This document shows positions 27,884 to 54,699 of a stretch of DNA of 64,000 bases, in pieces. The notes beneath the pieces were generated by a model that saw nothing but the letters and a program-made list of their open reading frames with translations, was not told the origin of the DNA and did no database searches. The stretch is from contig CBDCPJ010000053.1 in NCBI GenBank assembly GCA_965220165.1, forward strand, positions 7,143-71,142. Direction: 5' to 3'. The stretch's first letter is position 1. Each line of letters begins with the position of its first letter. The stretch is from Spirochaetia bacterium (GTDB lineage: Bacteria > Spirochaetota > Spirochaetia > G963692905). The position numbers and the translations under genes were made by a program.

Positions 27884-31739
<3,856 letters not shown>

Positions 31740-33506: not shown

Positions 33507-35738
33507 TTACCGACGATGCTCCCGCGATCGCGACGACGAAACGCGAGGCGGGCGACTCCCCCCGCCCCCGCCCCCGCGGCGAGGAGGTCGACTATCCCGC
33601 GACTGCCGATCGTATGGGCGTCCGCGGTTTTCGGTGGGGCGCTGATTGCCGGTATCGCCGGTATCGTCGTCATCGAGGAGAAGGCCTAAATTGACCCGCC
33701 CCATTTTATCGATTTCGATAATTTGCACATCGAGCACCTGATTAAGCCGCAAAAGATCACCCACCGATTCCAGTCTATTTTTGGACATCTTTGATATGTG
33801 GCATAGCCCTTCTTTGCTGGGGAGAAATTCTATAAACGCGCCAAAATCGACAATTCGCTTAACGGTACCAGAGTAGATTTTGCCTATTTCAGGCTCTTCG
33901 AGCAACTTCTCAAATTCCGCCCGCGCATTTTCGCCATTCTGTTTGTTTTTGCAATAGATGGTAACGAGCCCGGAATCATCAATATTTGTCTCGACGGAAA
34001 AACGCTCGTTGATCCCTTTGATCGTCTTTCCGCCCGCCCCTATAAGCATACCGATAAATTCAGGATTAATCTCGAATTTAATGATTCGCGGAGCATATTC
34101 AGAAAGCTCGGCTTGCGGTTTTTCGATGGCTTGGCCCATAACGGATAGGATATGCATACGACCCTTGCGAGCCTGTTCCAGCGCCTTTTTGAGCACATTC
34201 GCGTCGACATTTTTGATCTTGATATCCATCTGGAACGCGGTGATGCCCTCTTTGGTGCCCGCCACCTTGAAATCCATATCGCCGAAGTGATCCTCCTCGC
34301 CGAGTATGTCGCTGAGGACGATTACGTTTTCGCCCTCTTGCACCAGCCCCATTGCGATTCCCGCAACGGGTTGCTCGATAGGAATGCCGCCGTGCATAAG
34401 CGACAGACTCCCTCCGCATACCGTAGCCATAGACGAGGAGCCATTTGACTCCAATACCTCAGAGACAAGGCGAATAGTGTAGGGAAATTGCTCCCTATCC
34501 GGCAACACCGCGTCTAAAGCCCGATACGCCAAATTGCCATGCCCTATCTCTCGTCGTCCGGTAGCGAGCCGCCCCGTTTCGCCCACCGAGTAGGGAGGGA
34601 AGTTATAGTGGAGCATAAATGGAGACGAGCGGCGGTCGCCCTCGATATCGTCTAAAATCTGTTCGTCGTAGACCGAACCCAGTGTGGTGATGGCCAGCGC
34701 CTGCGTTTCGCCTCGGGTAAAAAGCGCCGACCCGTGCGCGCGATCGAGTATGCCGACCTCGCATTCGATGGGGCGAATATCCTCCGGCTTTCGTCCGTCC
34801 GACCGTAGATTGTTTTCGACAATGGAGCGACGAAGGATATCCTGCTCCAGCTCGTCGGCGATCGCGGCAAAGTACTGCTCGCGATCCTCAGGTATTCGCT
34901 CCCCAAATTGCTTTCGCGTCTCGGCGATGATATCGTTGATTGCCGCGCGACGGATCATCTTCCCCTTTACAAAGCAGGCTCGCTCCATTTTTGGACGCAA
35001 CGCCTCGACGATCTCGTCATGCGCCTCGAGACGATACTCATCGACCACCAGCGGCAACATCGGAGTCGCGACACGCTCCCGAAGCTCCCGCTGCGCCTCG
35101 CACAATTTGGCGATCGGTTGCCGAGCGAGTTCGATCGCCTCCGAAAGAACATCCTCCGAAATCTGATTGGCGCCGCCTTCCACCATAGTGATCCCATCGA
35201 TCGTCCCCGCGACAATGATATCGAGATCGCTTACCTTTGCCTGCTCCAGATTTGGATTGATGATATATTTGCCATCCACATATCCCACACGAACCGCACC
35301 AATTGGCCCGTCGAACGGAATACCCGATATCGAAACCGCCGCCGACGCCGCATTCATCGCCACTACATCGGTAGGCTGAATGCGATCCGCGGACATAACC
35401 GTAGGAATAACCTGGATATCGCGCTTGAACGCCTTAGAAAATAGCGGGCGAATCGGGCGATCGATAAGCCGAGAAACCAGAATCTCTCTGTCCTTCGGAC
35501 GAGCCTCGCGCTTAAGAAACCCGCCGGGGATTTTGCCCGCCGCATAATATTTCTCGTTGTATTCCACATGGAGAGGAATGAAATCGAGCGACTCATCAGC
35601 CTTATCCCCGCAACACACGGTGGCGAGCACCGCAACACCGCCGCAACGGGCAAATATCGAACCATTGGCCTGCTTCGCCATGCGTCCGGTCTGCATGACG
35701 ATCTCCCCGCTTCCAAACGGGATTGTAATCTCTGTCAC
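33507..35738 (-). CDS. pnp: polynucleotide phosphorylase
   Basis: Two RNase PH domains, KH and S1 regions. 743 aa with basic R/G tail. Confidence 0.9.
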   Translation of the reverse strand: MTEITIPFGSGEIVMQTGRMAKQANGSIFARCGGVAVLATVCCGDKADESLDFIPLHVEYNEKYYAAGKIPGGFLKREARPKDREILVSRLIDRPIRPLFSKAFKRDIQVIPTVMSADRIQPTDVVAMNAASAAVSISGIPFDGPIGAVRVGYVDGKYIINPNLEQAKVSDLDIIVAGTIDGITMVEGGANQISEDVLSEAIELARQPIAKLCEAQRELRERVATPMLPLVVDEYRLEAHDEIVEALRPKMERACFVKGKMIRRAAINDIIAETRKQFGERIPEDREQYFAAIADELEQDILRRSIVENNLRSDGRKPEDIRPIECEVGILDRAHGSALFTRGETQALAITTLGSVYDEQILDDIEGDRRSSPFMLHYNFPPYSVGETGRLATGRREIGHGNLAYRALDAVLPDREQFPYTIRLVSEVLESNGSSSMATVCGGSLSLMHGGIPIEQPVAGIAMGLVQEGENVIVLSDILGEEDHFGDMDFKVAGTKEGITAFQMDIKIKNVDANVLKKALEQARKGRMHILSVMGQAIEKPQAELSEYAPRIIKFEINPEFIGMLIGAGGKTIKGINERFSVETNIDDSGLVTIYCKNKQNGENARAEFEKLLEEPEIGKIYSGTVKRIVDFGAFIEFLPSKEGLCHISKMSKNRLESVGDLLRLNQVLDVQIIEIDKMGRVNLGLLLDDDDTGDTGNQRPTENRGRPYDRQSRDSRPPRRGGGGGGSRPPRVSSSRSREHRR

Positions 35739-35740
35739 GG

Positions 35741-36010
35741 CTATTTCCGGAGATTCAACTGACGTAGCACCGATCGATATCGTTCCATATCGTTATTTTG
35801 TAAATATCGAAGCAATCGCCGCCGTTTGCCCACCATCTTGAGCAAGCCCCGCCGCGAGCTATGGTCTTTCGAATGCATCTTAAAATGGTCGGTAAGATAC
35901 CGAATTCGTGTGGTCAACAGGGCTATCTGCACCTCTGTTTTCCCGCTATCTTTGGCAGTTACGCCAAACTGTTTAATAATCGACTGCGTGTCGATCACAC
36001 TACTTGACAT
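35741..36010 (-). CDS. rpsO: 30S ribosomal protein S15
   Basis: 89 aa. [12 protein letters not shown]-like motif. Classic pnp-rpsO pair. Confidence 0.9.
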
Positions 36011-36128
36011 GGTATATACAGTCTCCTTTTATGTGTCACTACGGATATACAAAATATAATAAATCAAAAACCGCATTTATGCAAGGGCATATTTTCAATT
36101 AAAATAATAAGAAGGGGAAATACAAGAA

Positions 36129-36425
36129 GGGGGAAGCCCCCTACGCTCCATAGCGGCTCCGCGTCTCGCAAAGCTCGACGCGGACCGCGTCCGTCTGATC
36201 GGGCTCCGCTCGCGCTCCGCCCTGACAGACGCTGCCGGCTATTGCGCTACCCCCGGGCAACTCTTCAACCGGCCACAAGCCTCCCGCTCCATGACGGGCC
36301 AGCTCCGCGCGAATAGTAGTCGTAGACGATATCGGTATAATTTCACAATAACCTCTTGACATTTATTGAAAAATTGTTAATCACAATGTGAGATAATTTC
36401 TGACTATATTTAAAATGAGGAATAT
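36129..36425. repeat. full copy R1 of ~297-bp composite repeat (GC-rich palindromic module + AT-rich promoter/SD module)
   Basis: Near-identical to 37911-38206 and 44824-45120. Starts with GGGGGAAGCCCCC hairpin. Ends ...TTGACA...TGtGAGATAAT...AAAATGAGGAATAT. Confidence 0.85.
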
Positions 36426-36427
36426 GG

Positions 36428-37789
36428 GTGCAAATGGATGTGAATGATATTGGGTTATACAGTTGGCGGAAGTTCTTTAGAGGATTGGGCAAAAAGCTAT
36501 GTGAGATTGGCGACCAAAATAATCGAAATAATCGAAATGACAAGATGTGCCGGTTAGCGAAGGATATTTTTGGAGATGATAAAGCCAGCGATCCTGTTTC
36601 GTTTGTTTGTCGGTGCTCTCGGAATAAAGATAAAAACACATGGAAAAAAATCACATGGAAAGGTAGCCGAAAAATATGGGTTGCTGTTTGCAGATATCAA
36701 GGATCATAGCTATCCTGTTGCAACAAACGATAAGTATGCCAAGTGTGATGCTAACGAATACAATGCTCTCTGGGAGATATTTGTAGCGGCATACAAAGCG
36801 AAGAAAATCGGTGGATTCGATGTCGATAACGCGCTTCGATTAACCGCCTCGTCGCTAGAGCGCTGTCGATTAAAGAGATCAGCGTTCCAAAGCTTACGCA
36901 TGTGCTTTTTTTGATCAATCCCGATGTTTTTGTCCCCATAGACAAGCACACATGCATTCCGCTCACTGCGATCTATAGCGATAAAGGAAACACAAACAAA
37001 ATTTTGACGAGCATAAAAAAAGGCACGTATAAATATGTTGATGCGGCGAGGGAGTTGTCCGACTGTTTTCCCAAATGTAAGCCATACGAAATATCACTTT
37101 TCTGTCGATTAGCGGCATATTATGTAGATTCTAGAAGCCTGATGGTTAATGCAAGAGATGGGATCAAACAATTAGTGGGCGAGGATTTAGTGGGCGAGGA
37201 TTTTGGGCAGGGATTTTGAGCTGGCTGATGAGGTGAGGTTGGTTTCAGATAAACCGGAAGGCGACGAGGACTCAAAAATGTGGGAATTCAGAGAAAATAA
37301 CCACGTTCGGCTAGGCTTGCTAATAGACGACGAAAGCAATGGTAACCGCGATAACACCACTACTTATTATCGGGATTATGCGAAGGTTAAGCCTGGCTGG
37401 TTCATGATTGCTATCAGTGGGCAATCTGTTTGTATGTTGGGATTGGTGGTACAAAGCTCAGCGTATGGAAAGAATCTGGAGGAATTTAAAAAGGATCAGT
37501 ATCCTATTCATGTAGTCTGGATGAATTGCGAAAAACCTCATAACGTGGATGGAGGCAAGAAGCCTTCCCTACATCGATATAACAGCTCATGGAAGATGGA
37601 GCCCGACGTAGAACAAAATTTTCCCAAATCGTATAGGATTATCAAAGCTATACAAGCCGGGCACCGGTAAAACATATCTTGCAAAAGAAGTTGCAGCTCT
37701 GATAAATATGAATGTGCAGTTCATCCGTCATACGACTATACCGATTTTGTCGAGGGTTTGCGGCCGGTAAATGAGGATAGCGACGCTTG
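36428..37789 (+). pseudogene. McrB-like AAA+ GTPase (5-methylcytosine restriction subunit B family), copy 1, frameshifted and truncated
   Basis: Fragments in three frames. Ends with Walker A KPGTGKTYLAKEVAA and, after repairing 1-nt shift, QFHPSYDYTDFVEGLRPV (McrB signature). Truncated at duplication junction 37789. Confidence 0.6.
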
Positions 37790-37910
37790 ACATGGTATAT
37801 ACAGTCTCCTTTTGTATGTCACTACGGATATACAAAATATAATAAATCAAAAACCGCATTTATGCAAGGGCATATTTTCAATTAAATAATAAGAAGGGGA
37901 AATACAAGAA

Positions 37911-38206
37911 GGGGGAAGCCCCCTACGCTCCATAGCGGCTCCGCGTCTCGCAAAGCTCGACGCGGACCGCGTCCGTCTGATCGGGCTCCGCTCGCGCTCC
38001 GCCCTGACAGACGCTGCCGGCTATTGCGCTACCCCCGGGCAACTCTTCAACCGGCCACAAGCCTCCCGCTCCATGACGGGCCAGCTCCGCGCGAATAGTA
38101 GTTAGACGATATCGGTATAATTTCACAATAACCTCTTGACATTTATTGAAAAATTGTTAATCACAATGTGAGATAATTTCTGACTATATTTAAAAGGAGG
38201 AATATA
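37911..38206. repeat. full copy R2 of composite repeat
   Basis: ~99% identical to R1 (3-bp deletion). Ends AAAAGGAGGAATATA. Confidence 0.85.
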
Positions 38207-38263
38207 GGTGCAAATGATGAGAATGATATTGGGTTATACAGTTGGCGGAAGTTCTTTAGAGGA

Positions 38264-39452
38264 TTGGGCGAAAAGCTATGTGAGATTGACGACCAAAATA
38301 ATCGAAATGATCGAGATGACAAGATGCGCCGGTTAGCGAATGATATTTTTGAAGATGATAAAGCCAGCGATCCTGTTTCGTTTGTTTGTCGGTGCTCTCG
38401 GAATAAAAAACACATGGGAAGGGTAGCCGAAAAATATGGGTTGCTGTTTGCAGATATCAAGGATCATAGCTATCCTGTTGCAACAGACGATAAGTATGCC
38501 AAGTGTGATGCTAGCGAACACGATGCTCTCTGGATGATATTTGTAGTGGCATACAACGCGAAGAAAATCGGTAGATATATCGATTTCGATCACGCGTTTG
38601 TGACTAACCGCATCGTCGATAGAGCTCTGTCGATTAAAGAGATCAGCGTTCCAAAGCTTACGCATGCGCTTTTTTTGATCAATCCCGATGTTTTTGTCCC
38701 CATAGACAAGCACACATGCATTCCGCTCACTGCGAACTATAGAGATAAAGGAGACACAGACAAAATTTTGACGAGCATAAAAAGCGGCACGTATAAATAT
38801 GTTGATGCGGCGAGGGATTTGTCCAACTGTTTTCCCAAACGTAAGCCATACGAAATATCACTTTTCTGTCGATTAGCGTCACCACAACTACTTGCCGGGA
38901 TTATGTGGAGGTTAAGCCTGGATGGTTCATGATTGCTATCAGTGGGCAATCTTTTTGTAAGTTGGGATTGGTGGTACAAAGCTCAGCGGATGGAAAGAAT
39001 CTGGAGGAATTTAAAAAGGATCAGTATCCTATTCATGTAGTCTGGATGAATTTCGAAAAACCTCATAACGTGGATGGAGGCAAGAAGCCTTCCCTACATC
39101 GATATAACAGCTCATGGAAGATGGAGCCCGACGTAGAACAAAATTTTCCCAAATCGTATAGGATTATCAAAGCTATACAAGCCGGGCACCGGTAAAACAT
39201 ATCTTGCAAAAGAAGTTGCAGCTCTGATAAATATGAATTTGTGCAGTTCCATCCGTCATACGACTATGATGAAACGCAAAAGATATATCCCGATTTTTAC
39301 CACAAAGATCAGCCGATAGTATTGTCAGGATACCTATGAGCAAAGACTATAATGATTTTCAGCAGTTCTGTGAGAAAATGGACGAGGCAGAGAAGAAGTT
39401 TATTGAGGAAATAGGCAAGACTGATTGTACATCTGGCAAAAATATTGAGTAA
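38264..39452 (+). pseudogene. McrB-like AAA+ GTPase, copy 2, decayed (N-terminal frameshift, ~250-bp internal deletion, AAA+ region scrambled)
   Basis: ~93% nt identity to copy 1. Retains KPGTGKTYLAKEVAA and FVQFHPSYDY. No McrC partner downstream. Confidence 0.55.
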
Positions 39453-39469
39453 CAAGCGCTTGTTACAAA

Positions 39470-40186
39470 TTAAATACTCGCATTGTCTGCATTACTCCGG
39501 CCTGTTTTCAAGCAATCGCAATCTAAACCCTTCAAAATATTTCTAACAGATTCAATTTTAACTAGTTCGATAACAAAGTAGCGTAGGTTCTGCGGCGCGC
39601 CATGCGCGCGAGACCATACTATTTCATTATAGTCTATTTCTAGTAGTTCGCAGAACTCCTGCCCGGTAAGTACCTCTTCATAGTTTATTTTTTTCTTAAA
39701 ACCGTTCACAATAGCGTTTCGGTCATCCTGATTGAAACAGCAAAAATGCGCTTTTACTTTGTATGGCACATTACGCGCGGTCTCTTCGATAAAAGATTTC
39801 ATAGCATTTTTTTCGGCATCTGACTTCTTGGTATCAAACGAATCTCCGTCTTTCAGTTCTACCAGATGACAATATTGTTCGCCCATTCTGTGTTTGAAGA
39901 TCATAAAATCCGGTTCGAATCCTTTTTTTGTACTTAGGGCATTGCATTTTTTGACTTTTTGCTTATCTGCTACTACAACCCCTTCCGGCATGCTTTGCAT
40001 CGAAAGAAAATCGTCCAAGTCTTCTATCAACGTGACTTTATTTTTAATAATGCGTTCCAATTCGGTGCCCGCTGATATCATGGCTGAATGGGCACGGCTT
40101 ACCAAACACCCTACTTCATCGTCTCCGAATAGGCGACTGTATCCGCTTCCCTTCGATCGTCCCTTCGCGTTTTCTATAAGCGCCAT
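39470..40186 (-). CDS. putative Type II restriction endonuclease (PD-ExK fold)
   Basis: FEPDFMIFKH...HLVELKDG gives PD...ExK spacing. Start codon adjacent to (abuts) methyltransferase stop (TAGATG). Confidence 0.5.
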   Translation of the reverse strand: MALIENAKGRSKGSGYSRLFGDDEVGCLVSRAHSAMISAGTELERIIKNKVTLIEDLDDFLSMQSMPEGVVVADKQKVKKCNALSTKKGFEPDFMIFKHRMGEQYCHLVELKDGDSFDTKKSDAEKNAMKSFIEETARNVPYKVKAHFCCFNQDDRNAIVNGFKKKINYEEVLTGQEFCELLEIDYNEIVWSRAHGAPQNLRYFVIELVKIESVRNILKGLDCDCLKTGRSNADNASI

Positions 40187-40984
40187 CTAGCCGTTCAGGT
40201 CGCAGCCCAGAAAGTCGCGTTTCTGTAGCTTGCAGGCCTCCATCACCGAAAAACTTCCAGCGGCCGGGTCGATCACAATATCGCCCTCGTTGGATACGGC
40301 GGCAATCAATGTGCCTTGCAGGTTGATAGGCTTCTTATGCGTGTGTCCGCTTCTTTGTACCTTCTCCACCAATACATCGGGAATGTCGTGAATCTTCCAG
40401 ACCCCTTTTGCCCTTAGCGGCTTTTTTTGCAACACTACGACATGCTCGCTGGATCGACGCGTCCGATACCCCATGCCGATTCTGTCTTTATGCCACGTAA
40501 CCATATCCACGACGCTCAGATGCGTTTCGTTCAGCCACTCCGAAAATCCGGTGCAAAGGTGAAATTTGTCCATCCAGAGAAAAAGATGGCCGCTTGGTAT
40601 CAGGACATTGGATATTCTCCGTATAAATTGGCATATTTTTTCCTCGTCCATCTGCTCCAGCGCAAAACGTTGTTGCCCGCGATTTTTGCCCTCGTTGCCA
40701 TACCCCAATTTATCCAGCACGCCTCGATATTGCGGATCAAAAAAAGCGACGGGAATGCTGTCTGCGGGCAATTTGCCAAGGAATTTCAGTCCGTCCATTT
40801 TCAGGCGCGTATTGAGGCGCAATCCTCGCGGAATTGCTATTTTGGGAGATTGAACTTCCCGATTGTTGCCAAACACAGTATTCTGCGTCGTATCGGGGAT
40901 AGGATCGGCATTTTTTATCTTTCGAGCCGGGCTGCTCATAAATTTGCTCCCGAACAGGGCAAGCAATTGCATTTGGCGCCGCAT
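40187..40984 (-). CDS. beta-class DNA methyltransferase (N6-adenine or N4-cytosine), motif IV variant DPQY
   Basis: ...LPADSIPVAFFDPQY (motif IV) precedes HTHKKPINLQGTLIAAVSNEGDIVIDPAAGSFSVMEACKLQKRDFLGCDLN (motif I, FxGxG-type). Order IV->I indicates beta class. Confidence 0.75.
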   Translation of the reverse strand: MRRQMQLLALFGSKFMSSPARKIKNADPIPDTTQNTVFGNNREVQSPKIAIPRGLRLNTRLKMDGLKFLGKLPADSIPVAFFDPQYRGVLDKLGYGNEGKNRGQQRFALEQMDEEKICQFIRRISNVLIPSGHLFLWMDKFHLCTGFSEWLNETHLSVVDMVTWHKDRIGMGYRTRRSSEHVVVLQKKPLRAKGVWKIHDIPDVLVEKVQRSGHTHKKPINLQGTLIAAVSNEGDIVIDPAAGSFSVMEACKLQKRDFLGCDLNG

Positions 40985-41065
40985 AGCGCTTGGGCTTGCG
41001 GAATATCCATTCTATAAAGGTTCATAGCGCTACGTGTTGTCTCCAATTCATCAGGCATTATTGAG

Positions 41066-41127
41066 ATTATATTGAACACAATAATTGTTTTCATCAAGTA
41101 CTATTATTATATTTAACACAATAATCG
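41066..41127. promoter_or_regulatory. pair of 22-bp direct repeats, each with internal dyad TATTG-N4-CAATA, upstream of R-M operon
   Basis: ATTATATTGAACACAATAATTG at 41066 and ATTATATTTAACACAATAATCG at 41106. 40-bp phasing. 80-140 nt upstream of methyltransferase start. Confidence 0.4.
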
Positions 41128-41158
41128 CCCGTTTTTACAATTCAGCAACTATTTCTTT

Positions 41159-43003
41159 TCATAGACAATCCCTAATCAGCGAACGATGCCACTTTAAGAG
41201 CATATCATGCGATCGAGCGGCCACCGACGCGTCGGGATGCTCTACATCCACGATAATGCGCAAGAGCGGCTCGGTGCCCGACTGACGCATCCAGAGCGAC
41301 GCGGCGGGCACCCCGTCGCAGCGACTGACGACAATCTTGATGCCGCCGCTCGATGGCGGCCGTTCCTGACCAGTGGCGACAATCTCGCGGTCGCCCGTCG
41401 AGTAGATCGCGCGGGGCGTTGAACTCGCCGCCCACAACAGCGCCGCTTGGCGGTGAAACGGTGTATCCTCGCGGCTCCACCGCTCCCGAAAAAGCTCCCG
41501 ATATCTTCGGGTAAACCCTCCCCAATCCTCTACGGAAAGCTCCATTTTGGCGCGAGAATCGCCGGTTTCGGTCGTCGCAAAGCTCGGCAACGAAGCGATA
41601 AGAAGCCCTATCGACCGATCCGCCTCTATGCGGCCGCCCCCGCGCCGCAACCGCGAGCGATCGATCCAGCGATCAAACAGCGCAATGCCCCGCTCGTCGT
41701 CGGCAAATAAGAGCGACAGCAGGCTCCCGATAGCCAGCAGCGGGTCTCGGACGGTCGACGGCGACATAATTGCCCCGCCATTCGATCCTTCGCCCGCAAT
41801 CGGCACATGGTAGCCCTTTTCAGCCAGCCGCTCGGCCAACGAAACGACATTCGCCTCGCCCACCTCGGCGCGATAGACCGCCGCCCCAAAACTGGCCGCG
41901 ATGCGGTCGATGGCGAACGACGTGGGCGCGTTGATCGCGACGGCGATCGGGCGTTGGCGACCGCTTTTCGCCGTCTGGCGAGCGAGCGTCGCGATAACCG
42001 CCACAGCAAACATCTGCTGCGCGGTCAACACCTTGCTCTCCGCGCCGTCCCAATAGCAAATATTGCCCCGATCGCCATCGCAGTCGGGCATATACCCAAA
42101 CGCGACATCCCGCGCGCCGGAGCCCTGCAGCGAAAGCTCCGCTCGGCATGCCTCCAACGAGTCGCCCTCCGGAACGATGGCATGCGCGATCTCGTCGGCA
42201 TTGAGTTCCGCCAGTTGGACGCCGGAGCCGCGCAACATTGCCCGATCGATGGAGGTCGCCCGCGCGCTTCCGTTGTAATCCATCACCACGCGGCACCCTC
42301 GCTCGCGGATACGCCGCGCGATCGTGTCGCCAAAGTCCATCGACCCGTCGCCCATCGACCCGTCGAGCCGGCCGCTCTCCCGCATATCCCCCGCCGCCCC
42401 CACATCTCCAGAGATAATCTTCCGACACTGCGTCGCGTAGCATCGACGAGCGACCGCCCGCGCATCGGGAGTCGCGCTATAGACAGCCTCTATTCGCGAC
42501 GGATCGACCGATAAACATTTCCGCTCGATCGACGCCCATCGTTCGGGCATAGCGCGCAACGCGGCGAAACGGGAAAGCGTCGCCTCCGCGCGATCAGGAG
42601 CAAGTATACGGCCGTCGCCCATCGCCAACTTGATCCCATTGTACCCAATTGGATTATGGCTTGCGGTAATGCACAGCGCGGCCGCTATCTGGCTATCAAC
42701 GCGCGCATAGCAGAGGAGCTCGGTAATCGGCGCCACATCAAGGTAGCGAACCGAATGGCCGCGAGCAAGGAGCGCCGCGATTATTGCCCGCGCCAACGGC
42801 TCGCCGGTGGGGCGACTATCGCGCGCCAACGCGATTGCCCCGACACCCGTCCCCCCGGAATCCTCGCCGTCTAGGTAGTCGCAGAACGCCCAAACGACCA
42901 GCGTAAATAATGTAAGACGCGGCGGCGCCACAAGAGGCGATCTACTCTCGGGATTATCATCTCCCGCTGCTATCGCACGGTATCCAGATATTGAAGCAAT
43001 CAT
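41159..43003 (-). CDS. phosphoglucomutase/phosphomannomutase family protein
   Basis: Active-site CITASHNPIGYNGIKLA (TASHNP phosphoserine loop). 614 aa. Confidence 0.8.
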   Translation of the reverse strand: MIASISGYRAIAAGDDNPESRSPLVAPPRLTLFTLVVWAFCDYLDGEDSGGTGVGAIALARDSRPTGEPLARAIIAALLARGHSVRYLDVAPITELLCYARVDSQIAAALCITASHNPIGYNGIKLAMGDGRILAPDRAEATLSRFAALRAMPERWASIERKCLSVDPSRIEAVYSATPDARAVARRCYATQCRKIISGDVGAAGDMRESGRLDGSMGDGSMDFGDTIARRIRERGCRVVMDYNGSARATSIDRAMLRGSGVQLAELNADEIAHAIVPEGDSLEACRAELSLQGSGARDVAFGYMPDCDGDRGNICYWDGAESKVLTAQQMFAVAVIATLARQTAKSGRQRPIAVAINAPTSFAIDRIAASFGAAVYRAEVGEANVVSLAERLAEKGYHVPIAGEGSNGGAIMSPSTVRDPLLAIGSLLSLLFADDERGIALFDRWIDRSRLRRGGGRIEADRSIGLLIASLPSFATTETGDSRAKMELSVEDWGGFTRRYRELFRERWSREDTPFHRQAALLWAASSTPRAIYSTGDREIVATGQERPPSSGGIKIVVSRCDGVPAASLWMRQSGTEPLLRIIVDVEHPDASVAARSHDMLLKWHRSLIRDCL

Positions 43004-43119
43004 ATAGTATCTATCGGAAAAATGCGTTCTTTTTTCGAATCGCGACGCATGAATTTAATATCTTCTTGCCTTATATAGATAACAATAAAGCGAAGACATG
43101 CCGACATTCAACAGAATAC

Positions 43120-44298
43120 ATGAAGATAGCGAGATACATACAGAAAATTATAAACATTGTCATTCGATGGGTGCGGATATCGCAATATGCCCGCCCCACG
43201 CTCTTTTTCCTCTTTTTTCTCGTTATCTGCGCCGCCCTCGCGGTGATGTTCGAAATGAACACCAACGGACAGTTCAACAACATTATCGACGGGTTTTGGT
43301 GGGTTATTATCACCTTTAGCACCACCGGTTATGGAGACAAGGTGCCGGTAACAATTGGCGGTCGCATCATCGCCATTTTGACGATATTGATCGGAATCAC
43401 CGGCATGAGTCTGTTATCGGGCGGATTGGCGTCATGGTTGGTAGAACGAAATACTAGGGCAAGGAGAGGTCTTGTGGATTACAGCTATCTTAAAAATCAT
43501 ATTATTGTCTGCGGATGGAAACCCGATATGGCCGACATACTATTGGGGATGATCGCGTCCGCCGACGATCTGTCGGGCGAAAATATTGTGATTATATCCA
43601 ATGTTCCCAGCGAGCGCATCGACGCGCTGCATGACAGAGACGAACTGCGCGCGGTGCGATTTGTGCACGGCGACTATTTTTCCGAAACGCCATTGTTGCG
43701 CGCGGGAGTCAAGAAGGCCAAAAAGGTGATGATTCTCGCCGACTCGCTAGAGAGCCATGGAGTTACGGAGGTCGATTCAAAAACCGTATTGGCGGTGTTG
43801 ACGATCAAATCGATATCTCGCGAAGTCTACGTTACCGCCGAACTTCTTGATAAAAAGTATGAAAGCTACCTCAAACAGGCCGCTTGCGACGAAATTCTTT
43901 TCAGTCAAGAAATGTCGCGCCACCTTTTGGCCAGCGCCTCGCATACCAATGGACTAAGCCACATATTTTACGCGTTGCTCTCTCATAACGAGCATCAAGT
44001 TCGCCTCACAACCGTTGAAATCCCCGCGATGTTTATCGAGCGAACCTACACCGACTTTAAGGAACACGTAGAAAAGCAGGAGCGCTGTCAGTTGATCGGG
44101 GTATTAGAGAATGCCGGATCGCCGGCGCGAATGAAAATAGACGCGCTTCGTTCGGCGCAAAAAACTTCGGATGTCTCTCGATTGATCAACAACCTCCAGC
44201 GAGTCAAAGGGCTAGAGGTAAACAGGCCGGTATTCACGCCGCCCAGCGACTATAAAATCAACGCAAACTCCCTCGGCATTTTAGTGGAGCATATTTAG
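43120..44298 (+). CDS. 2-TM potassium channel with C-terminal RCK (TrkA-N) domain
   Basis: Selectivity filter TTGYGD between two TM helices. Rossmann-like HIIVCGWKPDMADILL (RCK). Track ORF from 42991; start more likely Met at 43120. Confidence 0.75.
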   Translation: MKIARYIQKIINIVIRWVRISQYARPTLFFLFFLVICAALAVMFEMNTNGQFNNIIDGFWWVIITFSTTGYGDKVPVTIGGRIIAILTILIGITGMSLLSGGLASWLVERNTRARRGLVDYSYLKNHIIVCGWKPDMADILLGMIASADDLSGENIVIISNVPSERIDALHDRDELRAVRFVHGDYFSETPLLRAGVKKAKKVMILADSLESHGVTEVDSKTVLAVLTIKSISREVYVTAELLDKKYESYLKQAACDEILFSQEMSRHLLASASHTNGLSHIFYALLSHNEHQVRLTTVEIPAMFIERTYTDFKEHVEKQERCQLIGVLENAGSPARMKIDALRSAQKTSDVSRLINNLQRVKGLEVNRPVFTPPSDYKINANSLGILVEHI

Positions 44299-44299
44299 T

Positions 44300-44794
44300 A
44301 TGAGCAGAGCGGAGATATTTCAAAAGCTAGAGCAGATCCACATCTTTGAGAAGCTCTGCTCAAGCTCTGAAGACGCGGACAGGTTGATAAACATTATCCG
44401 CCGCGTAAAATATCAAAAAAATAGGATAGTGATTCATGAAGGCGAATTGGGAAACGATATGTTCATCGTCTATTCCGGATCGGTGCAGATACGAAAACGC
44501 ACGCGAGCGGGCGACAGCTACACGGTGGTCAACCTCTCCGCCGATCAAAATGTTTTCTTTGGCGAACTGGCGCTGATCGACGACGACAAACGATCGGCGA
44601 CCGTCCGCACCTTGAGCGACTGCGAATTTTTAGTGCTCGATAAGGCCGATTTCATCAAACTGGGCAACGACTATCCACACATCGCCCTGCCCATCACCCG
44701 CGCGATCTCGCAAATTCTCGCCGGCCGATTGCGACGCACGACAGCCGATATGCTTACCATTTTCGACGCGCTGGTCAACGAGCTATCGGGATAA
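44300..44794 (+). CDS. stand-alone cyclic-nucleotide-binding (CNB) domain protein
   Basis: FGELALIDDDKRSATVRT...DF motifs of CAP-family cNMP-binding fold. 164 aa, no output domain. Start 1 nt after channel stop. Confidence 0.75.
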   Translation: MSRAEIFQKLEQIHIFEKLCSSSEDADRLINIIRRVKYQKNRIVIHEGELGNDMFIVYSGSVQIRKRTRAGDSYTVVNLSADQNVFFGELALIDDDKRSATVRTLSDCEFLVLDKADFIKLGNDYPHIALPITRAISQILAGRLRRTTADMLTIFDALVNELSG

Positions 44795-44823
44795 TCCCCC
44801 ACAATACAATACAATATCATAAG

Positions 44824-45120
44824 GGGGAAGCCCCCTACGCTCCATAGCGGCTCCGCGTCTCGCAAAGCTCGACGCGGACCGCGTCCGTCTGATCGGGCTC
44901 CGCTCGCGCTCCGCCCTGACAGACGCTGCCGGCTATTGCGCTACCCCCGGGCAACTCTTCAACCGGCCACAAGCCTCCCGCTCCATGACGGGCCAGCTCC
45001 GCGCGAATAGTAGTCGTAGACGATATCGGTATAATTTCACAATAACCTCTTGACATTTATTGAAAAATTGTTAATCATAATGTGAGATAATTTCTGATTA
45101 TATTTAAAAGGAGGAATATA
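44824..45120. repeat. full copy R3 of composite repeat, abutting oppA start codon
   Basis: Identical architecture to R1/R2. Ends AAAAGGAGGAATATA immediately before ATG 45121. Confidence 0.85.
45050..45114 (+). promoter_or_regulatory. repeat-borne promoter-like module and Shine-Dalgarno for oppA
   Basis: TTGACA 45050-55. Extended -10-like TGaGATAAT 45083-91. AAGGAGG 45108-14, 6 nt before ATG. Confidence 0.45.
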
Positions 45121-46704
45121 ATGGCGCATAAATTTATCTTATTATTTGTCATGGCTTTTGTAGCCATTTCAGGCATCTCATTTGCTGGCGGCGAAGCCGA
45201 ACTCGGCGACGAAGCCGTAACGTTTCGAATCGGAAACGGCGCGGAGCCAGAATCGCTCGACCCTCATCTGGTTTCTGGCGTTCCGGAGCATCGTATTTTT
45301 TATTCGTTATTCGAAGGGTTGGTCACCAACGATCCGCAAACCAACGAGGCTGTCCCCGGCGTAGCGGAACGATGGGATATTAGCGACGACAGAACCGTAT
45401 ATACCTTTTATCTTCGTCGAACGACTTGGAGCGATGGCGTCCCTATTACCGCGCAGACGGTGTATGATTCATGGATTCGCGTTCTTGATCCCGAAACCGC
45501 TTCTCCGTACGCATGGTTTCCGGGTCTATTTATCAGCGGAGCTGATGAATACAACGGCGGCGAAGCCGGCCCAGATGTCGTAGGCATTAGAGTGGTAGAC
45601 GACTATACGTTCGAGGTCCAGCTAGCCGGACCGTTGCCATACGCGCTTGGCGCGCTGACCCACTATTCATTTGGCATCGTTCCCCTGCACGCTATCGAAG
45701 AGCATGGCACGGAATGGACGTTGGCGGAAAATTTTGTGGGAAATGGCCCGTTTATGCTTGAGGAATGGTTGCCGCAGCAACAACTCTCTGTCGTTCCCAA
45801 CCCATTATATTGGGACGCCGATGCCGTAAGCCTAGACCGCGTAGTCTATTTACCCATCGAGGATAATAACACAGGATACAATATGTTCCTGAACGGCGAA
45901 CTGGATTGGCAAACGACAGTGCCTAACGATCAGGTCGAACAGGCCCGTCTCGAACAGGGCTACAATCGCAACGCGCAGTTGGCCACGTACTATTATCACC
46001 TAAATAACAAGCGTCCTCCGTTGGACGATGAGCGTGTAAGAAAGGCTCTGGCTATCTCTATTGATAGAAACGAGCTGGTCGAAACGGTTACTCGGGCGGG
46101 GCAGATACCCGCGTATGGCATTGTTCCCGCGCTATCCGGATACGAGGCGACGGTAGCTTTCCAAGAAGATACCGATCAGGCGAGGCGATTACTAGAAGAG
46201 GCAGGCTTTCCGGGCGGAGAAGGTTTTCCGGAATTGCAAATTCTCTACAATACCAGCGAAGGGCATAAAAAGATCGCCGAGTATATTCAGCAACAATGGA
46301 AGGAGATCCTTGGAATCGACGTTTCGCTCATCAACCAAGAGTGGAAAACATATTTGAGCACGACGCGAGAGCATGATTTTGATATTGCTCGCGCCGGTTG
46401 GGTTGGCGACTATCAGGATCCAAATACCTTCCTTGATCTCTTTATTACCGATGGCGGTCTCAATAATAGCGACTACAGCAACCCGAGATACGACGAATTG
46501 ATTGAGCGAGCGTCTTCAATGTCGGCTGGAAGCCAACGATTCAATGTGTTGCGAGAGGCGGAAGAGCTTTTTATAGGCGAAGATCATGGAATTATACCGA
46601 TCTACTACTATGTCACGCTCAATATGATTGATACTAATAAGTGGGGTGGTTGGTACAAAAACGTACAGGATTTTCATCCTACCAAAGACATTTATAGGAA
46701 GTAG
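45121..46704 (+). CDS. oppA: oligopeptide ABC transporter substrate-binding protein (family 5)
   Basis: Signal peptide. 527 aa. Family-5 SBP composition. Followed by oppBCDF. Confidence 0.85.
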   Translation: MAHKFILLFVMAFVAISGISFAGGEAELGDEAVTFRIGNGAEPESLDPHLVSGVPEHRIFYSLFEGLVTNDPQTNEAVPGVAERWDISDDRTVYTFYLRRTTWSDGVPITAQTVYDSWIRVLDPETASPYAWFPGLFISGADEYNGGEAGPDVVGIRVVDDYTFEVQLAGPLPYALGALTHYSFGIVPLHAIEEHGTEWTLAENFVGNGPFMLEEWLPQQQLSVVPNPLYWDADAVSLDRVVYLPIEDNNTGYNMFLNGELDWQTTVPNDQVEQARLEQGYNRNAQLATYYYHLNNKRPPLDDERVRKALAISIDRNELVETVTRAGQIPAYGIVPALSGYEATVAFQEDTDQARRLLEEAGFPGGEGFPELQILYNTSEGHKKIAEYIQQQWKEILGIDVSLINQEWKTYLSTTREHDFDIARAGWVGDYQDPNTFLDLFITDGGLNNSDYSNPRYDELIERASSMSAGSQRFNVLREAEELFIGEDHGIIPIYYYVTLNMIDTNKWGGWYKNVQDFHPTKDIYRK

Positions 46705-46720
46705 ATAATACTTCCACACA

Positions 46721-47650
46721 ATGACGAAGTATATTATCCAGCGTGCCGCGGGGATTATCCCCGCCGTGCTGGCTATCGTCACCATAAGCTTTTTCATCAT
46801 TCGGATCGCTCCCGGCGGTCCGTTTGATGTAGAGCGTAAATTGCCCGAGCAGGTCTTGCGCAATATCGAGGCAAAGTACCACTTAGATGAACCGCTGGTT
46901 CAGCAATACTTTCGATACATTGGCAATTTGCTTCGCGGCGATCTCGGTCCCTCCTATCGATATCATGATCATGATGTCAATTTTTTTATATTTAGCAGTC
47001 TGCCGCACTCTATCCTGCTTGGAGGAGTAGCGTTGATCTTAGCGTTGCTCGCGGGCATCGTTGTCGGTATCATATCGGCGTTACGGCAAAATAGGTGGAT
47101 CGATTACAGCTCGATGTTTGTCGCGGTGTTTGGCATATCCGTCCCCGCATTTGTCATTGGGCCTGTATTGGTCTATTGGTTTTCCATTCAATTAAAAATT
47201 TTTCCTACGTCCGGATGGATCAACGTAGGCGGGGGAATTCGCAGTCTTATATTGCCGGTAATTACGTTGTCGTTATTTTATTTTGCCACAATCGCTCGGC
47301 TCAGTCGCGCCGGAATTATCGAAGTATTGCGTAGCGACTATGTTCGCACCGCGCGAGCCAAAGGATTGCCGACCGGATTGATTGTGGTCAAACATGTGCT
47401 TAAAGGAGCGTTGTTGCCGGTGGTAAGCTATCTTGGCCCCGCGATGGCCGCCATCGTCACCGGATCGGTGGTAGTAGAGACGATCTTTCTTATTCCCGGA
47501 TTGGGGCGATTCTTTGTGCAATCGGCATTTAACCGCGACTATACGTTGCTTTTGGGTTCGGTAATCGTATATTCGGTGTTATTGATAATTCTTAATTTCA
47601 TTGTCGATATTCTATATGGGTTGCTTGATCCCCGCATATCCTACAGTTAA
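46721..47650 (+). CDS. oppB: oligopeptide ABC permease
   Basis: 6-TM BPD-transporter permease with EAA loop region. Confidence 0.85.
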   Translation: MTKYIIQRAAGIIPAVLAIVTISFFIIRIAPGGPFDVERKLPEQVLRNIEAKYHLDEPLVQQYFRYIGNLLRGDLGPSYRYHDHDVNFFIFSSLPHSILLGGVALILALLAGIVVGIISALRQNRWIDYSSMFVAVFGISVPAFVIGPVLVYWFSIQLKIFPTSGWINVGGGIRSLILPVITLSLFYFATIARLSRAGIIEVLRSDYVRTARAKGLPTGLIVVKHVLKGALLPVVSYLGPAMAAIVTGSVVVETIFLIPGLGRFFVQSAFNRDYTLLLGSVIVYSVLLIILNFIVDILYGLLDPRISYS

Positions 47651-47664
47651 GGGAGTATAATATT

Positions 47665-48777
47665 ATGAACACTATACAGACCGAACAAAACGAACAGGGC
47701 CATAAAAATCTTGCGCTGGTCGACAACGAACAGCTCCAAACTGTTCGAAGGATTAGCCTCGGGCAAGACGCCTGGAGGCGACTAAAGAAAAATAGGCTTG
47801 CTTTGGCGGGTCTTGTCATCGTAATCGCATATTCATTGATATGCCTCTTGGCGCCGATTCTTCCCTTCTATTCCTTTTCCTATCAAGTGCCCGAACATAA
47901 TTTTCTGCCGCCGTCGCTCACAAAAACCGGAGGCGAGCTATGGCTGGAGCGAGAGACAAATTATACCTCGCAACTGGCAGCGGTCGAAGATCGCGCGATA
48001 TCTTCGGAAGAGCGCTCTGAACTGGACGATATACGACGACGCGTTTCCGAAGGAGAAACGCATGTCTTTGAGGGCAAAGAGATAAGCCTGCATGATCGAA
48101 AATATCTATTGGGCACCGATTACCTAGGACGAGATATGTTGGCGCGTATCGTTTACGGCGGACAGATTTCAATTTCGATCGGCCTCCTTGGGGCGATTAC
48201 CAGCGTTATTATTGGAATCATCGTTGGGGCTATATCGGGATATGTGGGGGGCAAAGTAGATTATATCATCACGCGATTTATAGACATCCTCTATTGTCTT
48301 CCCTATATGTTGCTGGTGATTATTCTTATGGCGTTGTTTGGACAAAATACTATCAACCTTTTTATCGGGCTCTCGATGATTAGCTGGTTAACGGTTGCTC
48401 GAGTAGTTCGCGGGCAAATTATTTCATTAAAAAATTCGATATTTGTCGAAGCCTCTCGTTCGGTGGGTTCCAGCGTTATGAGAATAATTTTTCGTCATCT
48501 CGTGCCCAATACGTTGGGCGTTATCATTGTATTTGCTAGTTTGCGCGTTCCCGCTTTTATACTGTTGGAGGCGTTTCTCTCATTTCTAGGATTGGGCGTT
48601 TCGGCTCCTCTCGCATCGTGGGGCTCGTTGCTTCGCGACGCTACCGATGGGCTTTCGCTCTATCCATGGCGGCTATTTTGGCCGGCGATTGTTATGAGTG
48701 TTTTCCTCCTTTCGATGAATTTCCTTGGCGATGGATTGCGCGACGCATTTGATCCCCAAAGCAAAAATCTTCTGTAA
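47665..48777 (+). CDS. oppC: oligopeptide ABC permease
   Basis: OppC/DppC-like, N-terminal extension. 370 aa. Confidence 0.85.
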   Translation: MNTIQTEQNEQGHKNLALVDNEQLQTVRRISLGQDAWRRLKKNRLALAGLVIVIAYSLICLLAPILPFYSFSYQVPEHNFLPPSLTKTGGELWLERETNYTSQLAAVEDRAISSEERSELDDIRRRVSEGETHVFEGKEISLHDRKYLLGTDYLGRDMLARIVYGGQISISIGLLGAITSVIIGIIVGAISGYVGGKVDYIITRFIDILYCLPYMLLVIILMALFGQNTINLFIGLSMISWLTVARVVRGQIISLKNSIFVEASRSVGSSVMRIIFRHLVPNTLGVIIVFASLRVPAFILLEAFLSFLGLGVSAPLASWGSLLRDATDGLSLYPWRLFWPAIVMSVFLLSMNFLGDGLRDAFDPQSKNLL

Positions 48778-48795
48778 GGGCTTCTATACACCATA

Positions 48796-49800
48796 ATGAA
48801 CACTCAAAAAGAGACACGTAATGATGTTATTTTGCAGGTACGCGGGTTAAAAACCCAGTTCAAAACGGACGACGGCCTTATTAAGGCGGTAGACGGCGTT
48901 GATTTTGACCTTCATTGCGGCGAAACGCTTGGTATTGTCGGCGAATCGGGAAGCGGTAAATCGGTTACCAGTCTATCGATTATGAAGCTTATTCCCTCTC
49001 CGCCCGGCCGCATTGTCGATGGCTCCATTATGTTTAATGGCGTCGATATCCTCAAACTTAATGAAAAGTCGTTGCGCAGCATCCGCGGCGCGGATATCGC
49101 GATGATTTTTCAAGACCCAATGACGTCGCTCAACCCGTTTCTTAAAATATCGACCCAGCTCATCGAAACGTTAGTGCTCCATCGCTCTATCAGCAAGCGG
49201 CAGGCAAAAGAGCAGGCTGTCGAACTGCTCGAGATGGTCGGCATACCCGATTCGAGGGGACGGATAGACAATTATCCGCACCAATTTTCGGGAGGAATGA
49301 GACAGCGTGTTATGATAGCGATGGCGCTGAGTTGCAATCCAAAGATTCTTATCGCCGACGAACCTACAACCGCGCTGGATGTTACGATACAGGCTCAAAT
49401 TATGGAATTGATTAAAGATCTCTCGGCTCGATTGAATACCGCCGTGATCATTATTACGCATGATTTGGGCGTGGTGGCCAGCATGTGCGACACTATTTGT
49501 GTGATGTATGCCGGAAGAATAGTGGAACAATCTACGGCTATGCGGATTTTTCACCATCCTCGCCACCCCTACACTCGCGGTCTTATTCGATCGGCGCCGC
49601 GATTGGACCAGGAATACGAACAGGATCTCTTCTCTATTCCGGGACAACCTCCGCTACTCTACGATCTTCCCGAATGTTGTCCGTTTCATCCTCGATGCGA
49701 TCATGCTATGGATATCTGTCGCGCTCATTATCCTTCCGAGAAGCGTTTTGAATCTATCGAGCGAGTCAATTGCTGGCTCTATAGCGACAAAAAGGAGTAG
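48796..49800 (+). CDS. oppD: oligopeptide ABC ATP-binding protein
   Basis: Walker A GESGSGKS, signature FSGGMRQR, Walker [14 protein letters not shown]-terminal oligopeptide domain. Confidence 0.85.
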
Positions 49801-49805
49801 GGACA

Positions 49806-50864
49806 ATGGGCAACGACAATCGCGAAACACTGTTGCGCGTAACCGATCTCAAAATGCACTTCGTTGCCGATGGCGGCGGAATATTTCGAAAGCCTACCGG
49901 CAAAGTGCGCGCGGTCGATGGAATAAGTTTTGATGTGAAACGGGGCGAAACGGTGGGCCTCGTCGGCGAATCGGGATGCGGCAAATCAACCGTTATACGA
50001 GCGATTGCCCAACTGTATCGCCCAACTAGCGGCAGCGTTCTCTTTGAGGGCCAAGAGCTTACTCAGTTGGGAAAAAATGATTTGCTCAGCGCTCGCCAAG
50101 ATATGCAGGTGGTGTTTCAGGACCCTTACGCCTCGCTTAATCCTCGCATGACGATAGGAGACACAATCGCCGAGCCGCTCCATGTCTATCGTTTTCGCAA
50201 GCTCATTCGCATGAGCCGGCACGATGTGGCCAAACGCGTTAATGAACTGCTCGATATCGTGGGACTATCTCGCAATTATCGCAATCGCTATCCCCATGAG
50301 TTTTCTGGCGGGCAGCGACAGCGTGTCGGCATCGCTCGCGCGTTGGCGCTTCGTCCCAAGCTTATTCTTGCCGACGAACCGGTAAGCGCGCTGGATGTTT
50401 CTATTCAGGCTCAAGTGCTCAATCTGTTGCGCGAGCTCCAGAAAGAGTTTAATTTGGCCTACCTTTTCATTTCGCACGATCTTGCCGTCATAAAATATAT
50501 CAGCAATAGAGTCGCGGTTATGTATCTTGGCAAAATCGTGGAAATGTCGAAAGCTGACGTGCTCTACAAGAACCCGTTGCACCCCTACACCAAAGCGTTG
50601 CTATCCGCGATTCCCATTCCCGATCCAGAGGCGAATAGCAAGCGAGCGCGGATTATTTTGGAAGGCGATGTTCCATCGCCCACTCAAAAGCAATCAGGGT
50701 GCTATTTCTATGGTCGGTGTCCCGAAAAAATGGCGCATTGCGAGCATGTGATTCCTCCGCTCATTGAGGTGGAGCCGAAGCACTCTGTTGCATGTCATCT
50801 TCATCCCGCGCCAGAGGCACCCCGCAATGAGCGCTCAACCGCTCAACCAGCTGATTCCAGTTAA
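49806..50864 (+). CDS. oppF: oligopeptide ABC ATP-binding protein
   Basis: [29 protein letters not shown]. Confidence 0.85.
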
Positions 50865-54543: not shown

Positions 54544-54699
54544 ATTTCCTCCATAGACGGTGAATATCTATAGATAGTATAGGCGCTATTTTTCGATTGC
54601 GCAAGCCATGGTTTCGTCGCTTCGATTACGGAGGGGCAAGGTTGATTGTTTTGTTGGGCGTTGCGGGCCATTTTTCTGGAATATTTCCAACTGGGCGAT

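Follow-up and report, generated by a model that had tools for sequence, protein, structure and literature searches.

In a 64,000-nucleotide stretch of a Spirochaetia bacterium (contig CBDCPJ010000053.1 of assembly GCA_965220165.1; hereafter the window), a unit of about 300 bp that ends at a start codon occurs three times: twice before mcrB-like gene remnants on the rpsO side and once before an oppABCDF-type operon. With slightly better than even confidence, we explain this distribution by ectopic copying of a hairpin-repeat element, together with a promoter and a Shine-Dalgarno (SD) sequence, between two loci, followed by tandem duplication. This would be promoter propagation without a transposing cassette. 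The original prediction, made from the sequence, was that the unit is a portable cassette supplying promoter and SD to the gene downstream. Judged from its motifs, the supply of these signals by the unit is plausible; its portability is only a candidate property, and an unlikely one.

Three copies of a composite unit

Gapped alignment placed the copies at 36127-36426, 37909-38206 and 44821-45120. A repeat search of the window grouped stretches of 300 nt at 36119, 37901 and 44813 into one family of three, in which copy 2 showed low ungapped identity because of a 2-nt deletion. Each pair of copies differs at 4 positions in 298-300 nt of gapped alignment; thus, the repeat is real and far beyond chance. 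A diagnostic 17-mer from the GC-rich part and a 28-mer from the AT-rich part had 0 matches each in dinucleotide-preserving shuffles. The original prediction had described three near-identical copies, and its coordinates were correct to within 3 nt.

36127-36426, plus strand: copy 1, with the rpsO leader on one side and the GTG (36428) of the first mcrB-like remnant on the other; its SD carries a mutation (AATGAGG).
37909-38206, plus strand: copy 2, in the second unit of the tandem duplication described below; it has a CG deletion in the GC-rich extension and an intact SD, and is followed by the GTG (38208) of the second mcrB-like remnant.
44821-45120, plus strand: copy 3, occupying nearly all of the 326-nt spacer between the stop codon (44794) of a cyclic nucleotide monophosphate (cNMP)-binding protein gene and the oppA ATG (45121).

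Similarity among the copies stops at AAGGGGG on the 5' side and at the start codon on the 3' side. Alignment positions 258 and 278 set copies 1 and 2 apart from copy 3, positions 290 and 300 are private to copy 1, and the 2-nt CG deletion is private to copy 2. This pattern matches the tree (copy 1, copy 2), copy 3 and fits a history in which the rpsO-side copy was duplicated after splitting from the oppA copy. The contig L056, assembled independently from a different sample, matches 38755-48208 of the window (9.4 kb) at 99.66% identity and has the oppA copy and both of its junctions with 0 differences. Therefore, the oppA copy is not an assembly artefact. A microsatellite, (ACAAT)x3, lies directly 5' of this copy at 44801-44815.

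As read from its sequence, the unit joins two components that were copied as one, a member of a hairpin-repeat family and unique, putative promoter DNA. Its parts, with the coordinates of copy 3, are as follows.

44821-44948, plus strand: core hairpin-repeat element, ~128 bp, 70% GC (equivalents at 36127-36254 and 37909-38036).
44949-45024, plus strand: GC-rich extension, 76 nt, 62% GC, unique to the unit.
45025-45120, plus strand: AT-rich module, 96 nt, 23% GC, with putative promoter signals and the SD.

The core consists, in order, of the hairpin AA-GGGGG-AAG-CCCCC (P0, 44823-44835), the left arm TACGCTCC, an interior of multiple hairpins closed by ATAGC/GCTAT, and the right arm TGCGCTACCCCC. 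The GC-rich extension contains a second, degenerate left-arm-like motif (CCTCCCGCTCCATGAC, 44974-44989) and is not significantly similar to the 3' sequence of any other family member. The extension and the AT-rich module make up the last ~170 bp of the unit, which is unique sequence ending at the start codon. The promoter 28-mer of the AT-rich module was found in the window only within the three copies of the unit. Because the AT-rich module exists only in these copies and the other family members lack it, the hairpin family and the promoter module are separable; only one family member, that of the unit, is attached to the promoter module. The original prediction had taken the GC-rich part for an imperfect palindrome of ~220 bp. 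This did not hold, since the part is a string of separate hairpins and its total folding energy does not beat that of shuffles (z = -0.84).

Copies 1 and 2 lie within one tandem duplication of 1.78 kb (36003-37785 and 37786-~39267). Therefore, there are only two independent placements of the unit.

36003-37785, plus strand: tandem-duplication unit 1, with the first 8 nt of rpsO (cttgacat), the rpsO leader and copy 1, followed by an mcrB-like remnant that is frameshifted and breaks off after ...FVEGLRPVNEDSD.
37786-39267, plus strand: tandem-duplication unit 2, laid out as unit 1 minus the equivalent of 37118-37354.

Two motifs of the remnant, Walker A (PGTGKTYLAKEV) and FHPSYDYTDFVEGLRP, are read in different frames. 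When these frames were joined by hand into one peptide, it matched AAA and AAA_5 of Pfam weakly; as two residues before Walker A had been altered, the match is supportive only. A word-indexed search with the 222-aa ORF (open reading frame) of the mcrB-like gene found no homologues. We presume, partly from known McrB motifs, that the remnant is mcrB-like, which is plausible.

Between the tandem copies, the units (36127-36426 and 37909-38206) differ by 2 substitutions in 299 sites (~1%) and one indel, whereas the pseudogene bodies (36428-37785 and 38208-39267) differ at 54 of 1046 aligned sites (~5%). Divergence of the unit is some fivefold lower than that of the pseudogene next to it (Fisher p = 1.2e-4; Poisson P(<=2) = 2.7e-5). 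Such a difference points to gene conversion between all three copies or to selection that acts on the unit even before dead genes. The oppA copy is equally close to both tandem copies. L056, a strain variant, differs from the window mainly at 38759-39161. Therefore, the region of the tandem duplication varies between strains.

Four further ideas about the unit were examined and rejected. A 73-aa ORF on the minus strand of the GC-rich part (44835-45056) is treated as spurious, and the 2-nt deletion in copy 2 destroys its start. It served as a proxy for extra copies of the unit in protein space: among 5.8 billion proteins it was found only on this contig (twice, plus a shifted version from copy 2) and in the strain variant. 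A ribozyme like that of hepatitis delta virus (HDV), for which the G5 and C5 runs and CCUCGC were mapped by hand onto the nested double pseudoknot, misfits in the order of the helix strands, and Rfam gave no HDV-type match. A CsrA sponge, with GGA in antisense loops, was discarded on TCC/GGA counts that are at the dinucleotide expectation in all seven members; GCTCC alone is enriched in the unit (6 against 1.0 expected). An invertible promoter was dismissed for lack of flanking inverted repeats.

Putative promoter and translation signals

The AT-rich module contains two overlapping putative promoter candidates of the sigma-70 type, for which hexamers at -35 and -10 with a spacing of 16-18 nt, or an extended -10 (TGn + -10), would be expected. 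The first is TTGACA (45050-45055) followed by a 17-nt spacer and AATCAT (45073-45078), which matches the consensus at 10 of 12 positions and was flagged by the promoter scan in copy 3 only; copies 1 and 2 read AATCAC instead and were not flagged. The second, found by reading the sequence, is a stand-alone extended -10, TGaGATAAT (TG at 45083-84, GATAAT at 45086-45091), present in all three copies. A perfect TATAAT at ~45030-45035 has no -35 partner. The original prediction had joined TTGACA and TGaGATAAT into one promoter. This reading fails, because TTGACA and GATAAT are 30 nt apart, the wrong spacing for a -35/-10 pair. Either candidate would give a 5' untranslated region of about 20-35 nt that ends in AAGGAGG.

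This SD (45108-45114) stands 6 nt before the oppA ATG, and across the copies the SD lies 6-7 nt upstream of ATG 45121, GTG 36428 and GTG 38208. AAGGAGG had been ascribed to all copies; it is intact in copies 2 and 3, but copy 1 reads AATGAGG. The module had also been described as ending 6-15 nt before a start codon. It does abut the start, but the similarity ends at the start codon itself and the short distance is that of the SD.

Without the unit, the stop codon of the cNMP-binding protein gene and the oppA ATG would be 26 nt apart, with no SD in between. This is consistent with supply of the oppA translation signals by the unit. The promoter signals and SD of the unit most likely drive oppABCDF, if the motifs are read correctly. 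The claim that the element supplies promoter and SD stands in part: promoter-like hexamers are present, the SD is the sole one available to oppA, and the same module abuts an unrelated mcrB-like gene, but the pairing of TTGACA with GATAAT is wrongly spaced. On the rpsO side, a purine-rich AAGAAGGGGAAA precedes the unit. We also read a possible rpsO promoter, TTGCAT-17-TATTAT, on the minus strand at 36056-36084, ~40 nt from the left edge of copy 1, which the consensus scan did not flag. If this promoter is real, the unit sits back-to-back with it.

A hairpin-repeat family in spirochaetes

The core of the unit matches 6400-6500 at 80% over 101 nt and has an inverted match at 54736-54815. A mismatch-tolerant search with both arms added a member at 27718-27844 on the minus strand. 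The window holds six core members, all of them intergenic, and three of them have no promoter module.

6386-6602, plus strand: promoter-less member between pfk (6660-7853, minus) and a DHFR gene (5807-6289, minus), antisense to both.
27661-27858, minus strand: promoter-less member between murJ (27884-29503, minus) and a Peripla_BP_2 gene; stem base AGACG/CGTCT, fold z -7.1.
54654-54790, minus strand: short-form promoter-less member with a single 18-bp hairpin, between hisI (54011-54355, plus) and a gene at 54983 (plus); tail at 54654-54668.

The members follow a common plan. A mini-hairpin of AA, a G5 run, a short loop and a C5 run is followed by the left arm (T)CGCTCC, a stem with the base ATAGC/GCTAT, and the right arm T(C/G)CGCTACCCCC. 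The stem encloses a variable interior of 25-130 nt with one to three hairpins. The family arms, CCCCCTCGCTCC…TCCGCTACCCCC, are conserved; both are C-rich and they are not complementary to each other. In the member at 6386-6602, the left arm is at 6401-6417 and the right arm at 6500-6516, followed by a second stem, GCGGGC…GCCCGC, and a tail at 6588-6602. All three promoter-less members continue with this second stem and the exact 15-nt tail GCCCGCAACGCCCAA, which the unit lacks. Their folds are far more stable than those of shuffles (z = -3.5 to -7.1). The orientation of the family to genes is mixed: the member at 27850 and the copies of the unit are co-directional with the downstream gene, and those at 6386 and 54654 run antisense to the genes on either side. 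This argues against an obligatory function as a sense-strand leader. The family fits a DNA-level or orientation-independent repeat of the type of repetitive extragenic palindromes (REPs) or MITEs, the miniature transposable elements with inverted repeats.

Two observations concern the neighbours of these members. The member at 27661-27858 ends ~10 nt before the likely ATG (~27650) of the Peripla_BP_2 gene on the minus strand; this gene encodes an N-terminus resembling a signal peptide and lacks a recognisable SD, and its mechanical ORF (26467-27894) spans the whole element. Downstream of the short-form element lies a 55-aa ORF with a good SD (GGAGGAAATATG) on the minus strand at 54376-54543, which has no Pfam match.

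Beyond the window, the right-arm 17-mer was scanned in species-representative genomes, metagenome contigs and viral contigs, where it gave 22, 30 and 1 loci, respectively. The left arm was also present at only two of these loci, one in a Treponema metagenome-assembled genome (MAG) with one short-form member (L005) and one in a Spirochaetia MAG with three long-form members in 5.4 kb (L008). The members in both MAGs have neither the promoter module nor the GC-rich extension. The 12-nt arms are identical in at least three spirochaete lineages, and they are fixed while the stems covary: ATAGC/GCTAT is replaced by AGACG/CGTCT in the member at 27850, which amounts to three double changes. In addition, the stem that closes the conserved loop TCCGCTCGC(C)GCTCC is GGGC/GCCC in members of the window and CCGG/CCGG in those of L008. 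In L008, a hairpin element has been duplicated with ~100 nt of its 5' flank (1068-1318 and 4445-4690), and the duplicated flank includes short repeats of the GACCCAACCC type and the 3' end of paralogous genes. This duplication of element plus flank runs in the opposite direction to that of the window.

A small covariance model of the arms recovered the known members and, beyond them, only weak matches in the window (E about 0.9 or worse); its sensitivity is low because the long-form members split into halves. In another spirochaete contig (L055), the region 4750-4831 upstream of an orphan oppA-like gene has three CGCTCC within 49 nt and CGCGCTACCCCC. This region may be a degenerate family member, although neither alignment nor folding nor the covariance model (E = 0.95) gave it significance. 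In viral contigs, the 15-mer tail gave single-match loci only, which we took as chance matches. The original prediction did not recognise the sequence family, and neither did Rfam: at the gathering threshold, the scan of the window gave only two tRNAs, and around three family members nothing credible appeared at E<=10. No description of the family was found in the searchable literature. Thus, the repeat family seems to be undescribed.

The family can be compared with REPs and bacterial interspersed mosaic elements (BIMEs). As with these, the spirochaete family is GC-rich, extragenic, hairpin-forming and multi-copy, occurs in either orientation, and has covarying stems and conserved short flanks. 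A REP unit is by definition ~20-40 nt long and has its tag, GTAG or CGTC, immediately at the foot of the stem (PMC3733652). The antisense strand of the spirochaete family has GTAG near the stem foot (GGGGGTAGCGG), but it is 4 nt from the stem and occurs on the antisense strand only. The spirochaete units are 90-220 nt long with branched interiors, as against 20-40 nt, so that they depart from REPs in both size and tag position. Their flanks are both conserved, C-rich and non-complementary, and the arms are common to several genera. No gene for a REP-associated tyrosine transposase (RAYT, a Y1 transposase) was found among the 62 ORFs of the window.

Elements mobilised by HUH enzymes, such as the palindrome-associated transposable elements (PATEs) derived from IS200/IS605, have sub-terminal hairpins, conserved single-stranded flanks and no terminal inverted repeats (TIRs) or target-site duplications (TSDs), and this would fit the core of the family. 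The Pfam scan of the window identified no TnpA or TnpB gene, and no cleavage tetranucleotide was identified. An integron attC site (RYYYAAC...GTTRRRY, in an array beside intI) was rejected, as the arms are CCCCCTCGCTCC and TCCGCTACCCCC, the members are dispersed among housekeeping genes and the window has no integrase. Neither the family nor the history of the unit overturns current understanding; the family, with its shared arms and covarying hairpins, is the more durable by-product of the analysis.

Proposed copying between two loci and its alternatives

The two placements lie in different surroundings. Gene labels in the window are from Pfam, for which its 62 ORFs were scanned; those of the opp operon are for genes called in L056.

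33507-35738, minus strand: pnp.
35741-36010, minus strand: rpsO.
39470-40186, minus strand: gene for a 238-aa protein, no Pfam match.
40187-40984, minus strand: N6/N4 DNA methylase gene.
45121-50864, plus strand: oppABCDF-type operon, encoding an SBP_bac_5 protein, two permeases and two ATPases.

After the methylase gene come genes for phosphoglucomutase (PGM), a K+ channel and the cNMP-binding protein, then copy 3 and oppABCDF. The stretch 36.4-41 kb, with the two mcrB-like remnants, the 238-aa gene and the methylase gene, is low in GC (0.39-0.44). Because the whole stretch is low in GC, it probably represents a restriction-modification or defence islet that was acquired and is now decaying. 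The remainder of the window consists of housekeeping genes.

The history that we favour would run as follows. A single copying event of the ectopic recombination type would have put the element, its promoter and its SD both upstream of oppA and beside rpsO, where the unit would have come to lie before the mcrB-like gene of the low-GC islet. The 1.78-kb tandem duplication would afterwards have yielded the third copy. Gene conversion or selection would have kept the copies near-identical while the mcrB remnants decayed. The hairpin element may have acted as a recombination hot spot, or it may form an mRNA-end or insulator structure as REPs do. The oppA locus is weakly favoured as the donor site, because removal of the unit leaves oppA without any SD. 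If this history is true, it is a clean, datable promoter propagation, in which a resident promoter and SD were reused before a horizontally acquired defence gene. The adjoining repeat may have promoted the recombination, and the duplicated unit would have stayed intact while the gene that it served decayed.

Propagation of a promoter to two loci is a kind of event that has already been described, also in a Treponema. A survey of putative mobile promoters (PMPs; Matus-Garcia, Nijveen & van Passel, NAR 2012; PMC3488235) reported >4000 families, two-thirds of them with two members, and defined them by upstream regions that align over >50 nt at >=80% identity between non-homologous downstream and upstream genes. 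In Treponema brennaborense, one family has 10 members, whose conservation extends from -5 to about -120/-170 relative to the translation start, and the proposed mechanisms include recombination-mediated duplication and non-autonomous repeats (PMC3488235). The unit falls under this operational definition: the oppA copy and the mcrB copies align over 300 nt with 4 differences, the downstream genes are non-homologous (oppA, SBP_bac_5, and the mcrB-like remnant), and so are the upstream genes (cNMP-binding protein gene and rpsO). Copies 1 and 2 count as one member because duplication of the whole tandem unit makes their neighbouring genes homologous. The unit resembles the described families in being near-identical upstream DNA before non-homologous genes, and the T. 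brennaborense family also ends at the start codon. It differs in being longer (300 nt) and 98-99% identical, in being visibly a repeat-family member joined to unique promoter DNA, and in that one of its target genes is a decayed pseudogene that was later tandemly duplicated.

The hallmarks of transposition are absent, as the original prediction had noted. A search of 44780-45140 found no inverted repeat >=9 nt and no TIRs, and the flanks (...ATACAAG|unit|GGTGCAA and ...ATATCAT|unit|ATGGCGC) share no direct repeat that would be a TSD. Since neither TIRs nor TSDs are present, recombination is the more likely route of spread, which agrees with what had been proposed. Pfam detected no transposase, integrase, recombinase or Y1/HUH domain in the 62 ORFs. 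The promoter 22-mer had 0 matches in metagenome contigs, and the full unit had no match in plasmids and phages. The term portable cassette is not warranted: there are only two independent placements, the other members in the window and in the two spirochaete MAGs have no module, and the orientation to genes is not consistent. The same applies to the proposed likeness to promoter-bearing MITEs of the Correia type. Correia elements (NEMIS) of Neisseria have 26-bp TIRs, duplicate a TA target, are 100-155 bp long and occur in hundreds of copies. They are alike in being short intergenic repeats able to place promoters by genes, but the 300-bp unit does not share their TIRs, TA duplication or size, nor, as far as the searchable data go, their copy number: the full unit is at two independent sites in 64 kb and nowhere else in these data.

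Several points weigh against ectopic copying of a functional promoter. We only infer promoter function, from consensus matches, because such matches are common in the region: the scan found 23 against 14 expected in 10.5 kb. The direction of copying follows from the SD argument alone. The unit as a whole, with its GC module, may be under selection for some function, which could explain its unusually low divergence. The counts cover the 64-kb window of the source genome, and further full copies elsewhere in it are possible. Finally, at both loci the edges of the unit are the 5' end of the family element and the start codon. Such a coincidence is what a dedicated cassette would give and is not predicted by simple illegitimate recombination. 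It could mean that the hairpin element took part in the event, with homology or template switching on one side and SD microhomology on the other, or it could point to a dedicated cassette.

Such a cassette would be a genuine mobile promoter and SD that inserts directly 5' of start codons, for example by one-ended or read-through mobilisation of the hairpin element with capture of the flanking promoter. We regard this as unlikely. It would account for the edges at both loci, with the natural 5' end of the family element (AAGGGGG) on the left and the start codon on the right, and for the better conservation of the unit than of the adjoining DNA. The family looks expanded here, with six members in 64 kb that all have the exact 17-mer, and multi-member promoter families of this kind are known in a Treponema (PMC3488235). 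However, only two independent sites were found, with no TIRs, TSDs or transposase in the window, and the other family members have no promoter module. Furthermore, neither the 0 matches of the promoter 22-mer in metagenome contigs nor the 73-aa ORF of the GC module, which led to no further copies in the 5.8 billion proteins, points to an element that has spread. A broader version, in which the hairpin family is a mobile or protein-recognised element of Spirochaetia and the unit is a portable expression cassette under selection that captured promoter and SD, is a little more doubtful.

Insertion or rearrangement of an ~8.7-kb segment (36427-44820) would also leave copies 1 and 3 as direct repeats. 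The ancestral order would be rpsO-[unit]-oppA, and a Campbell-type or duplicative event would have duplicated a 300-bp target. Copy 1 is indeed contiguous with the rpsO leader on the left and copy 3 with oppA on the right, and the block between them starts with the low-GC restriction-modification islet (GC 0.39-0.44 at 36-40 kb). Still, we give this a low probability. No integrase or recombinase is encoded in the block, and 300 bp far exceeds any target duplication. The right half of the block (PGM, K+ channel and cNMP-binding genes) does not look foreign, because its GC content (0.47-0.63) is within the range of the window. The sole oppABCDF ortholog whose context was retrieved (L175) has a 54-nt spacer with neither rpsO nor the unit upstream. 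Upstream regions of the orphan oppA-like genes of L054 and L055 (70-72% OppA identity) do not align with the unit either. The unit is absent from relatives at 65-72% OppA identity, which are too distant or non-orthologous to reveal an empty site.

It is improbable that the unit encodes a GC-rich small RNA of ~270 nt on the minus strand, starting in the AT-rich module and stopping at the G5/C5 hairpin and a U-rich tract. The terminator scan flagged the hairpin AGGGGGCTTCCCCCT with a T-rich tail in all three copies, but most other members have only 2-3 U after the hairpin and none has the AT-rich module. In 7/7 members, folds of the antisense strand are more stable by 3-10 kcal/mol than those of the sense strand, and the antisense fold of the unit has z = -2.9; such an advantage is expected of any G-rich strand. 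As for a start, copy 3 reads TATAAT on the minus strand at about 45093-45098, but it has no -35 partner and the scan found no minus-strand promoter in the AT-rich module. Rfam gave no match on either strand, and TCC/GGA motifs are not enriched above the dinucleotide expectation.

Also improbable, and slightly more so, is a sense-strand RNA, in which the hairpin element would be a cis-regulatory or mRNA-processing element for the downstream gene (e.g., genes of solute-binding proteins) and the repeat would reflect shared regulation. Three placements are just 5' of same-strand genes, two of which encode binding proteins (oppA, and Peripla_BP_2 at 27650, which starts 10 nt beyond the element). 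However, of the five independent placements in the window, two (6386-6602 and 54654-54790) are antisense to both flanking genes, and in the unit the promoter is downstream of the element. The three-CGCTCC cluster with CGCGCTACCCCC before the oppA-like gene of L055 might be taken in its favour, but that region has no significant alignment to the unit and folds no better than shuffles; moreover, the spacer of the L175 ortholog is only 54 nt.

Creation of the copies by repeat-induced mis-joins in a low-coverage metagenome assembly is highly improbable: related contigs do come from low-coverage assemblies (about 3-4x by contig names) and L056 begins at 38755, inside the tandem repeat, but copy 3 and both of its junctions are exact in the independent sample, copies 1 and 2 have private differences, and the pseudogene bodies are ~5% diverged, which is not expected from collapse or expansion.

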